In this document: piece by piece, positions 28,483 to 30,238 of the stretch
Numbering within the stretch: position 1 is the first letter of the stretch
Layout: every line of letters begins with the position of its first letter
DNA from: Escherichia coli
Lineage (GTDB): Bacteria > Pseudomonadota > Gammaproteobacteria > Enterobacterales > Enterobacteriaceae
Length of the DNA: 64,000 bases
Direction: 5' to 3' (one strand)
NCBI RefSeq assembly: GCF_003334765.1
Contig: NZ_QOWT01000006.1
Made by a program: the position numbers and the translations under genes
The notes under the pieces: model-generated
Told to the model about the DNA's origin: nothing
Seen by the model: the letters and a program-made list of their open reading frames with translations, nothing else
Database searches by the model: none

Positions 28483-29856
28483 TTATTTTAATAACCGCAC
28501 CCGGCACGTTTTTCCTTTAATCTTCCCGCCCTGTAACTGTTTCCATGCTTTATGAGCAACAGCCTGACGGACCGCGACATAGACATGCGCCGGATGCACG
28601 GCGATTTTGCCAATATCTGCGCCATCAAGCCCGATATCTCCTGTCAGTGCACCTAATACATCACCCGGGCGCATTTTGGCTTTTTTCCCGCCATCGATAC
28701 ACAACGTTGCCATTTCTGCTTCCAGCGTCGCAATGGAACTATTAGCTGGCGGCGTTTGCCAGTTAAGTTTTATCTGCAACATGTCAGAAATGATATTGGC
28801 CCGCTGTGCTTCTTCCGGAGCACAGAAACTGATCGCCAGACCGCTATTTCCTGCACGAGCTGTACGACCGATGCGATGTACATGAACTTCAGGGTCCCAC
28901 GCCAGCTCAAAGTTCACCACCAGCTCAAGCGATTTAATATCCAGACCACGCGCAGCAACATCAGTCGCGACCAGTACACGGGCGCTACCGTTAGCAAAAC
29001 GTACCAGGGTCTGATCGCGATCGCGTTGCTCCAAATCGCCGTGTAATGACAATGCACTTTGCCCTACTTCATTCAGCGCGTCGCAGACAGCCTGGCAATC
29101 TTTTTTGGTATTGCAAAACACCACGCAAGAGGATGGCTGATGCAAGCTTAATAACCGTTGCAACAGAGGAATTTTGCCTTTGCTGGATGTCTCATAAAAT
29201 TGTTGTTCAATGGGTGGCAAAGCATCTGTTGAGTCAATTTCAATCGCCAAAGGATCGCGTTGCACTCGTCCGCTGATTGCAGCGATGGCTTCCGGCCAGG
29301 TTGCCGAAAACAGAAGCGTCTGTCGAGATGCAGGCGCAAAACGGATGACATCATCAATGGCATCGCTAAATCCCATATCCAGCATGCGGTCGGCCTCATC
29401 CATCACCAGCGTATTCAACGCATCCAGTGATACCGTGCCTTTTTGCAGGTGATCCAGCAAACGCCCCGGCGTTGCCACGATAATATGCGGCGCATGTTGC
29501 AACGAATCACGCTGCATACCGAACGGTTGACCACCGCACAACGTCAAAATTTTGGTATTTGGCAGAAAACGCGCCAGCCGACGCAATTCACCTGCCACCT
29601 GATCCGCCAGTTCACGCGTAGGACACAGCACTAAAGCCTGGGTTTGAAATAGCGACGCATCAATTTGCTGTAACAAGCCGAGGCCAAAAGCCGCCGTTTT
29701 GCCGCTGCCGGTTTTCGCCTGCACGCGAACATCTTTTCCGGCAAGGATCGCCGGAAGCGCGGCGGCCTGCACCGGCGTCATGGTTAAATAACCCAACTCA
29801 TTAAGGTTCGTGAGTTGGGCGGGAGGCAAAACATTCAGGGTAGAAAAAGCGGTCAC
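28483..29856 (-). CDS. dbpA: ATP-dependent DEAD-box RNA helicase (23S rRNA hairpin 92 specific)
   Basis: 457-aa ORF with Walker A (AKTGSGKT), DEAD and SAT motifs. Confidence 0.93.
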   Translation of the reverse strand: MTAFSTLNVLPPAQLTNLNELGYLTMTPVQAAALPAILAGKDVRVQAKTGSGKTAAFGLGLLQQIDASLFQTQALVLCPTRELADQVAGELRRLARFLPNTKILTLCGGQPFGMQRDSLQHAPHIIVATPGRLLDHLQKGTVSLDALNTLVMDEADRMLDMGFSDAIDDVIRFAPASRQTLLFSATWPEAIAAISGRVQRDPLAIEIDSTDALPPIEQQFYETSSKGKIPLLQRLLSLHQPSSCVVFCNTKKDCQAVCDALNEVGQSALSLHGDLEQRDRDQTLVRFANGSARVLVATDVAARGLDIKSLELVVNFELAWDPEVHVHRIGRTARAGNSGLAISFCAPEEAQRANIISDMLQIKLNWQTPPANSSIATLEAEMATLCIDGGKKAKMRPGDVLGALTGDIGLDGADIGKIAVHPAHVYVAVRQAVAHKAWKQLQGGKIKGKTCRVRLLK

Positions 29857-29885
29857 AATCTATTCTCGTGGTCATCGACGCAAAG

Positions 29886-30059
29886 TTAGCAGGCGCGTAT
29901 CCTCGCAGATCTACGCTCACGATGCGACAATTTAATCGGTTCTTCATCGGGTGGTGGGTCAGGCATGGGTTGCGGGCGAGGGATCGGATCGGGCACTGGA
30001 ACAGGATCGCCAGGAATCGGTTCAGGGACAGGAATTTGCAAATAAATAAGTGTCGTCAT
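29886..30059 (-). CDS. 57-codon proline-rich small ORF (MTTLIYLQIPVPEPIPGDPVPVPDPIPRPQPMPDPPPDEEPIKLSHRERRSARIRAC)
   Basis: ATG preceded by GAGGG Shine-Dalgarno at about 5 nt; too short for the ORF track; lies between fnrS and the dbpA start. Confidence 0.45.
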   Translation of the reverse strand: MTTLIYLQIPVPEPIPGDPVPVPDPIPRPQPMPDPPPDEEPIKLSHRERRSARIRAC

Positions 30060-30116
30060 ATTTCCCTCTGGTCATTGGGTGGACTCTTAAAGGGTAGACG
30101 CTGATAAATAACAGGC

Positions 30117-30238
30117 AAAAAAAAGCCGACTCATCAAAGTCGGCGTCGTACGAATCAATTGTGCTATGCAGTAATTCAAAAAAGGAAGTAAGACAATATG
30201 GAGCGCAACGCCCATCGCTTGACGTTGCATTCACCTGC
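30117..30238 (-). ncRNA. fnrS: FnrS small RNA (FNR-activated, Hfq-dependent)
   Basis: Reverse complement matches the recalled FnrS sequence (GCAGGTGAATGCAACGTCAAGCGATGGGCG...), ending in a GCCGACT hairpin plus U-run; about 122 nt. Confidence 0.75.

Follow-up and report, generated by a model that had tools for sequence, protein, structure and literature searches.

Several described systems resemble parts of the locus analysed here. In Salmonella, the proline-rich leaders mgtL and mgtP sense via translation, and nascent chains rich in D/E-P can abort translation. The mgtL and mgtP peptides are 17 to 18 amino acids long and act only in cis, through alternative structures of the leader RNA. The arrest peptide SecM carries the motif IRAG(P), TonB contains a polyproline (EP/KP) region, and the small protein SgrT is encoded inside the sRNA SgrS. 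The gene ynaL shares a feature with each of them. Like mgtL and mgtP, it is a short proline-rich ORF with D/E-P motifs, followed on its own strand by a larger gene; unlike them, no alternative structures were found, about 30 of its residues are strongly conserved and the gene exists without the downstream gene. The C-terminal RSARIRAC of the YnaL protein bears a superficial resemblance to the SecM motif. The alternating X-Pro tract of YnaL, expected to form an extended rigid rod, recalls the polyproline region of TonB, but YnaL has neither a membrane anchor nor a C-terminal domain. Against TonB profiles, YnaL obtained 20.8 bits with NCBIfam (cut-off 315), on the proline tract only, and E = 0.75 with Pfam TonB_N. 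Membership of the TonB family was rejected, these scores being far under the cut-offs and the likeness one of composition, not of homology. Finally, as for SgrS and SgrT, a small-protein gene and the gene of a regulatory sRNA, here fnrS, are physically linked; ynaL differs in that it starts past the fnrS terminator, possibly with a promoter of its own.

The gene was found in the window, that is, the whole stretch of 64,000 nucleotides of Escherichia coli DNA that was analysed, and the coordinates of all features are gathered in Table 1. The ORF consists of 57 codons followed by TAA and is encoded on the minus strand, between an ATG at 30059-30057 and a stop codon at 29888-29886. Among the 57 residues of the protein, 16 are Pro, 8 are D/E and 7 are K/R. 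A GAGGG motif stands 4 nt 5' of the ATG, 57 nt separate the last T of the fnrS terminator T-run from this ATG, and 29 nt separate the TAA from the GTG of dbpA (29856). An earlier sequence-only reading had given the same coordinates, strand, codon number, translation and distances to both neighbours, all of which were confirmed, and its good Shine-Dalgarno was recovered as well, the motif being conserved in nearly all the loci compared. The ORF corresponds to ynaL, a small-protein gene of Enterobacteriaceae that was already known, annotated and shown to be translated; as regards this identity alone, we consider the assignment practically certain.

Table 1. Features of the fnrS-ynaL-dbpA region, in window coordinates
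Feature	Coordinates	Strand	Remarks
fnrS sRNA gene and intrinsic terminator	30121..30238	-	Rfam RF01796, 134.8 bits
Candidate ynaL promoter	30091..30118	-	Inferred; TTGCCT (30113-30118), 16-nt spacer, TACCCT (30091-30096)
ynaL Shine-Dalgarno AGAGGGA	30063..30069	-	GGAGGG in most genera; kept with the ATG in nearly all 29 loci
ynaL coding sequence	29886..30059	-	Identical to WP_001296046.1; PF23677, E = 2.2e-40
Proline-rich core DPVPVPDPIPRPQPMPDPPPDEEPI	29934..30008	-	Selected as peptide: residues fixed, synonymous sites free
Block A CCGATTAAATTGTCGCATC	29921..29939	-	Nucleotide-invariant bar a few positions; absent where there is no ynaL-dbpA junction
Block B AGATCTGCGAGGATACGCGCCTGC	29889..29912	-	Conserved putative nucleic-acid element over ynaL codons 50-57
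dbpA initiation region	29843..29869	-	Weak Shine-Dalgarno ACGAGA (29864-29869), GTG (29854-29856), conserved first five codons
dbpA, ATP-dependent 23S rRNA helicase	28483..29856	-	Gene 3' of ynaL in E. coli

A region of 601 nt around ynaL was searched with megablast and found as a single copy in 5393 of the 5426 complete E. coli genomes, all at least 95% identical. This region is 100% identical to records carrying an annotated ynaL (WP_001296046.1) between zntB and dbpA, and among the matches listed every E. coli record labels the CDS ynaL, with the product protein YnaL or proline-rich small protein YnaL. Residues 1-57 align with positions 1-57 of the Pfam model PF23677 (136.8 bits). The ORF had been described as unannotated-looking in the sequence-only reading, which does not hold since RefSeq already annotates it as ynaL. 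Experimental evidence is also on record. Nakahigashi et al. 2016 (PMC4909307) list the identical ORF as IVP7 in their TetRP supplement (1407332-1407505 in older K-12 coordinates), with a start-site signal in this initiation-arrested ribosome profiling; IVP7 was one of five sORFs picked for genomic Venus fusions, and the text gives no result for IVP7 alone. The gene was named ynaL by VanOrsdel et al. 2018 (PMC6001520), who tabulate the identical sequence, placed between fnrS and dbpA, and report it as an unidentified positive of tetracycline-arrested ribosome profiling. They detected the protein via a chromosomal SPA tag and immunoblot and remarked on a possible ynaL-dbpA operon. Our literature search returned no later paper on YnaL function and none naming YnaL in an E. 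coli context; nor did it return anything linking dbpA with intrinsic ribosome destabilisation. Thus, the suggestion that the ORF encodes a genuine small protein was correct but not new (IVP7 in 2016, the SPA tag in 2018, RefSeq, Pfam), and ynaL, named since 2018, is not a discovery.

Relatives of YnaL were collected by searching 5.8 billion proteins, which yielded 162 of them at E ≤ 0.001; among the matches listed, all 120 relatives carried PF23677. Those with a genus name belong to Escherichia, Citrobacter, Salmonella, Enterobacter, Klebsiella, Raoultella, Kosakonia, Leclercia, Lelliottia, Pseudocitrobacter and others, and homologs occur in at least 14 genera. The family is small, since an exhaustive profile search of 1.84 billion representatives retrieved 37 YnaL clusters only. 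A divergent subgroup is found in Mixta and Erwinia (Erwiniaceae), Phytobacter and Scandinavium. It keeps the core SDPVPTDPVPIPDPIPxPQPxPDPPP and ends with ...DPPPH(R/M), whereas the other members end with ...EEPIKLSHxxxRSARIRAC. For the comparison of loci, 29 genome loci were fetched, with one genome per species. The ynaL ORF was intact in all 29, length differences being in frame only, and a few rare frameshifted variants were met among the database proteins. Frameshifts or stops in close relatives had been named beforehand as a sign against the gene; none was seen in 30+ species, where only in-frame indels occurred. Two length variants of the X-Pro tract were observed, an in-frame deletion of 11 codons in E. 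coli E69 (locus L009, 2501-2641) and a duplication of 10 residues in an allele of Salmonella enterica (P0053). Such polymorphisms are consistent with repeat slippage tolerated only in frame.

Substitution rates were calculated with the Nei-Gojobori method, each sequence being compared with E. coli. Over the 40 C-terminal codons of ynaL, dN/dS ranged from 0.01 to 0.2 at dS of 0.6 to 1.3; over the N-terminal 17 codons or so, dN was about equal to dS. The substitution pattern, a check put forward in the sequence-only reading, thus favours coding, with the low dN/dS values falling in the core. In the proline tract the residues do not change, but the third positions of the Pro codons vary freely, a pattern present in the ynaL frame only, and 1 of the 18 amino-acid-conserved degenerate codons uses a single codon in all species. 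Residues being fixed and third positions free, the selected object in this tract is the peptide. The proline-rich core is conserved as far as Erwiniaceae. Judged by these patterns, the comparison shows selection at the amino-acid level on an acidic tract of about 30 residues with Pro at every second residue. The model built by AlphaFold2 from the family alignment contains no helix and no strand, with a mean pLDDT of 77, values of 82-93 for residues 11-40 and a pTM of 0.24. High local confidence without secondary structure, together with this low pTM, points to an extended polyproline-type rod, and YnaL is predicted to adopt such a shape and not a globular fold; on a proline repeat, the AlphaFold confidence may concern local geometry only.

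The 3' third of ynaL shows a different type of conservation, which indicates selection on the nucleotide sequence of two blocks, A and B. Block A corresponds to codons 41-46 (CCG ATT AAA WTG TCG CAT) and codons 50-56 of block B read AGA TCT GCG AGG ATA CGC GCC, the rare AGA, AGG and ATA included. Both are conserved at the nucleotide level across 19 to 20 species from some eight genera, whereas the three intervening codons vary freely, and both occur in exactly one place per E. coli genome. In the ynaL tail a single codon is used at 10 of the 11 amino-acid-conserved degenerate codons, versus 0 of 90 over codons 50-149 of dbpA (Fisher p = 6e-13). In Kosakonia cowanii, ynaL stops early, after ...EEPIKLSR, in a 49-aa allele on record on 130 contigs, and another locus (L040) shares this early stop. 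In both, block B is intact yet untranslated, within a spacer of 62 nt before dbpA. In Klebsiella and Raoultella, the ORF runs 4 to 5 codons beyond block B and stops 14 nt before dbpA. The distance from the GAGGA of block B to the dbpA start nevertheless remained between 45 and 48 nt in 33 loci (a single outlier was an artefact of pattern matching), so that it is fixed while the ynaL stop sits anywhere from 14 to 62 nt upstream of dbpA. The retention of block B where it is untranslated suggests that a nucleic-acid element is conserved and not a peptide, and its fixed distance from dbpA, whatever the position of the stop, suggests a cis element of the dbpA leader. The basic tail, which the sequence-only reading had taken as a feature of the peptide, appears instead to be an incidental translation of block B, RSARIRAC.

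Candidates for the nature of the blocks were considered. The Rfam scan of the ynaL-dbpA leader gave no match at E ≤ 10, and a sigma-70 promoter scan of both strands of ynaL detected none that would account for blocks A and B. Motifs for sigma-54, sigma-E and sigma-28 were unconvincing on manual inspection, the candidate -12 GC being lost in Enterobacter. The fold of the ynaL-dbpA junction had a stability of z = -0.18 relative to shuffles. All predicted RNA pairs involving the blocks are invariant; no compensatory changes are visible because the predicted partners never vary. Block B contains a 3-bp hairpin that is disrupted in Kosakonia. Similarity or complementarity of the blocks to h89-h93 of the 23S rRNA, the DbpA substrate, was rejected with a local alignment score below the shuffle mean on both strands. 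Pairing of FnrS with the ynaL-dbpA mRNA was not supported, since the best duplex reached -27.5 kcal/mol and 82 of 100 shuffled mRNAs were equal or better. Finally, block B does not travel with dbpA, being absent 5' of the stand-alone dbpA of Erwinia.

The junction with dbpA is tight in most genomes, with a ynaL-dbpA spacer of 14-30 nt in 30+ species and 62 nt in K. cowanii, and no terminator-like site was found in the 29-nt spacer of the window. In 33 junction loci dbpA starts with GTG, and in K. cowanii (L039) with TTG; its Shine-Dalgarno is weak (GAGA). A small hairpin is predicted at this Shine-Dalgarno and start, with one-sided changes only. Some genomes lack the junction. In Phytobacter, Mixta and an Enterobacter-like genome (L035, L037 and L038), there is no adjacent dbpA, the ynaL homolog is convergent with ttcA, and it has a strong Shine-Dalgarno and its own terminator-like hairpin. 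The order in Erwinia (L036) is ynaL, terminator-like hairpin, ttcA and dbpA, with ttcA inverted, and the stand-alone dbpA has the same GTG start and weak Shine-Dalgarno. This initiation region is thus ancestral and not an adaptation to coupling. With dbpA missing or displaced by ttcA, the locus has been rearranged around a constant zntB-fnrS-ynaL core. The existence of homologs with their own hairpin and no adjacent dbpA argues that control of dbpA cannot be the primary role of the family, and ynaL does not depend on dbpA.

Other observations were made in this neighbourhood. A 9-bp hairpin (GCCCAACUC...GAGUUGGG) lies inside dbpA at 29791-29820 of the window, minus strand, in codons 13 to 22 or so, about 36-66 nt past the start codon. 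Three of its pairs show compensatory changes across genera (for one of them, AU 6, GU 5 and GC 5). Between 24000 and 33500 of the window, the gene order of the strain is ompN, nifJ, uspF, ttcA, dbpA, ynaL, fnrS, zntB, dgcM. At least 80% of this segment is matched in a single place by only 3505 of the 5426 E. coli genomes, which indicates that the neighbourhood varies between strains. Immediately 5' of zntB, RefSeq annotates a 15-codon ORF as protein YnaN (L001, 1923-1970).

On the other side, fnrS lies immediately 5' of ynaL in all 39 loci, and about 61 nt separate the end of the Rfam fnrS model from the ynaL ATG in most of them. The TTGCCT hexamer directly follows the T-run of the fnrS terminator, the candidate promoter overlapping the end of this run. 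The 16-nt spacing is kept in 17 of 20 species with a variable spacer sequence, and the -10 hexamer is 31-33 nt from the ATG. The same geometry is found in Phytobacter, Erwinia and Mixta with other nAnnnT hexamers. The candidate falls below the threshold of the consensus scanner, its -10 matching at 3 of 6 positions, and in two Citrobacter loci a 9-nt deletion in the spacer counts against the promoter reading. TTGCCT/TACCCT looks like a weak promoter of ynaL that overlaps the terminator of fnrS; another possibility is that, in some genera, ACCCU pairs with the ynaL Shine-Dalgarno (AGGGU).

The explanation that we prefer as a whole combines the identity of the ORF as ynaL, selection on both peptide and nucleotide sequence, a YnaL protein acting in trans and a secondary coupling to dbpA, and we hold it with somewhat better than even confidence. 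For its mechanistic part, action of YnaL in trans as a free-standing small protein, which is the most likely mechanism, we would put the chances at about even. It is favoured because of the selection at the amino-acid level, the stable accumulation of the tagged protein and the survival of ynaL as a monocistronic gene. The gene would be transcribed from the weak promoter overlapping the fnrS terminator, by read-through of this terminator, or by both. The working part of YnaL would be the acidic extended rod of polyproline-II type, which may serve as a ligand or spacer for some partner. In Escherichia and its relatives, where dbpA follows directly without a terminator, the two genes would be co-transcribed. 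The last 12 or so codons of ynaL would be read through the cis-acting element of the dbpA leader, and ribosomes finishing ynaL would probably help to open or load the weak dbpA GTG site, as a secondary and lineage-specific role. Co-transcription with some translational coupling is plausible in E. coli.

That a chance ORF in DNA rich in proline codons is mistaken for a gene seems next to impossible. Several other frames on both strands of this CCN-rich stretch are also open over 40-80 codons, so that openness alone is weak evidence for ynaL; an overlapping antisense ORF was rejected on the same ground, the open frames being compositional and inconsistently maintained. However, the Shine-Dalgarno and ATG are conserved, homologs extend over at least 14 genera, dN/dS is much smaller than 1, and this is the only frame in which the variation falls at third positions. 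Published data add a start-site signal for translation and an epitope-tagged protein. This substitution pattern by codon position and these experiments indicate a real gene. As to what the gene does, the upstream ORF affecting dbpA translation proposed in the sequence-only reading is possible in E. coli, in line with the tight conserved spacing, but this is not the primary role of the family. In a stronger form, ynaL would mainly be a leader ORF whose translation controls that of dbpA, either through termination-reinitiation or because the initiation region of dbpA is opened, and the peptide, once released, would be functionless; we rate this as possible though rather unlikely. In 30+ species, 14-30 nt and no terminator separate the ynaL stop from the dbpA GTG, and the nucleotide-invariant blocks stand just upstream of dbpA. 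Against this, the arrangement is kept in K. cowanii although its ynaL ends 62 nt before dbpA, and homologs without a neighbouring dbpA survive, with a terminator-like hairpin of their own. The GTG start and weak GAGA Shine-Dalgarno of dbpA, also in favour of a leader ORF, are found on the stand-alone Erwinia dbpA as well. In RNAalifold predictions, codons 38-46 of ynaL can pair with the start of dbpA, or the Shine-Dalgarno with the GTG, yet the junction fold is no more stable than its shuffles and has no compensatory changes. Moreover, the residues of the Pro tract are strongly selected, which pure delivery of ribosomes does not need. A mainly cis-acting role in most Enterobacteriaceae would likewise be compatible with the short, fixed distance that they keep between ynaL and dbpA.

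Two further alternatives place the function in the nascent chain. YnaL could be a translational sensor that signals proline, EF-P or Mg2+ status to downstream expression, its nascent chain either causing EF-P-dependent polyproline pausing at DPPPD or destabilising the ribosome from within as MgtL does. We consider it improbable. The 16 Pro among 57 residues, in alternating D/E-P motifs, and a nearly invariant PDPPPD are what such a sensor would display, but E. albertii and the Citrobacter youngae group have PSP, with no two prolines side by side, in place of PPP, and C. amalonaticus has PPQ. In addition, the full-length tagged protein accumulates, no alternative RNA structures were detected at the junction, and there is nothing downstream to regulate in the free-standing homologs. 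An arrest peptide of SecM or TnaC type, made of RSARIRAC beside the stop codon and working from within the exit tunnel, has a very low probability in our estimate. Within the dbpA-linked subgroup its residues S51, R53, I54 and R55 do not vary; against an arrest function, the block is conserved at every synonymous site, 4 to 5 extra codons follow it in Klebsiella and Raoultella, and the Erwiniaceae subgroup has no tail at all. Its persistence without translation in K. cowanii and L040 essentially excludes a SecM-like arrest peptide.

The analysis has consequences for the study of this locus. The existence of ynaL without an adjacent dbpA makes a purely leader role unlikely, and the search for the function of YnaL is narrowed, the selected peptide being the proline-rich core and not the basic tail. 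In the published work, the SPA and Venus tags were placed at the 3' end of ynaL, immediately after block B. These C-terminal insertions would have disrupted or displaced the dbpA-leader element, and tagging or deleting ynaL would disturb the block element, which is relevant when effects on dbpA are interpreted. The only new leads are this dbpA-leader element, conserved even when untranslated, and the adjacency of fnrS and ynaL across two families. In a joint reading that we regard as speculative and doubtful, the undescribed element in the 3' third of ynaL (blocks A and B, the latter kept when untranslated and always 45-48 nt away from the start of dbpA) may control DbpA synthesis. Separately, fnrS and ynaL would form a conserved module of an sRNA and a small protein in Enterobacteriaceae and Erwiniaceae, YnaL being produced by terminator read-through or from the terminator-overlapping promoter under FNR-related conditions.
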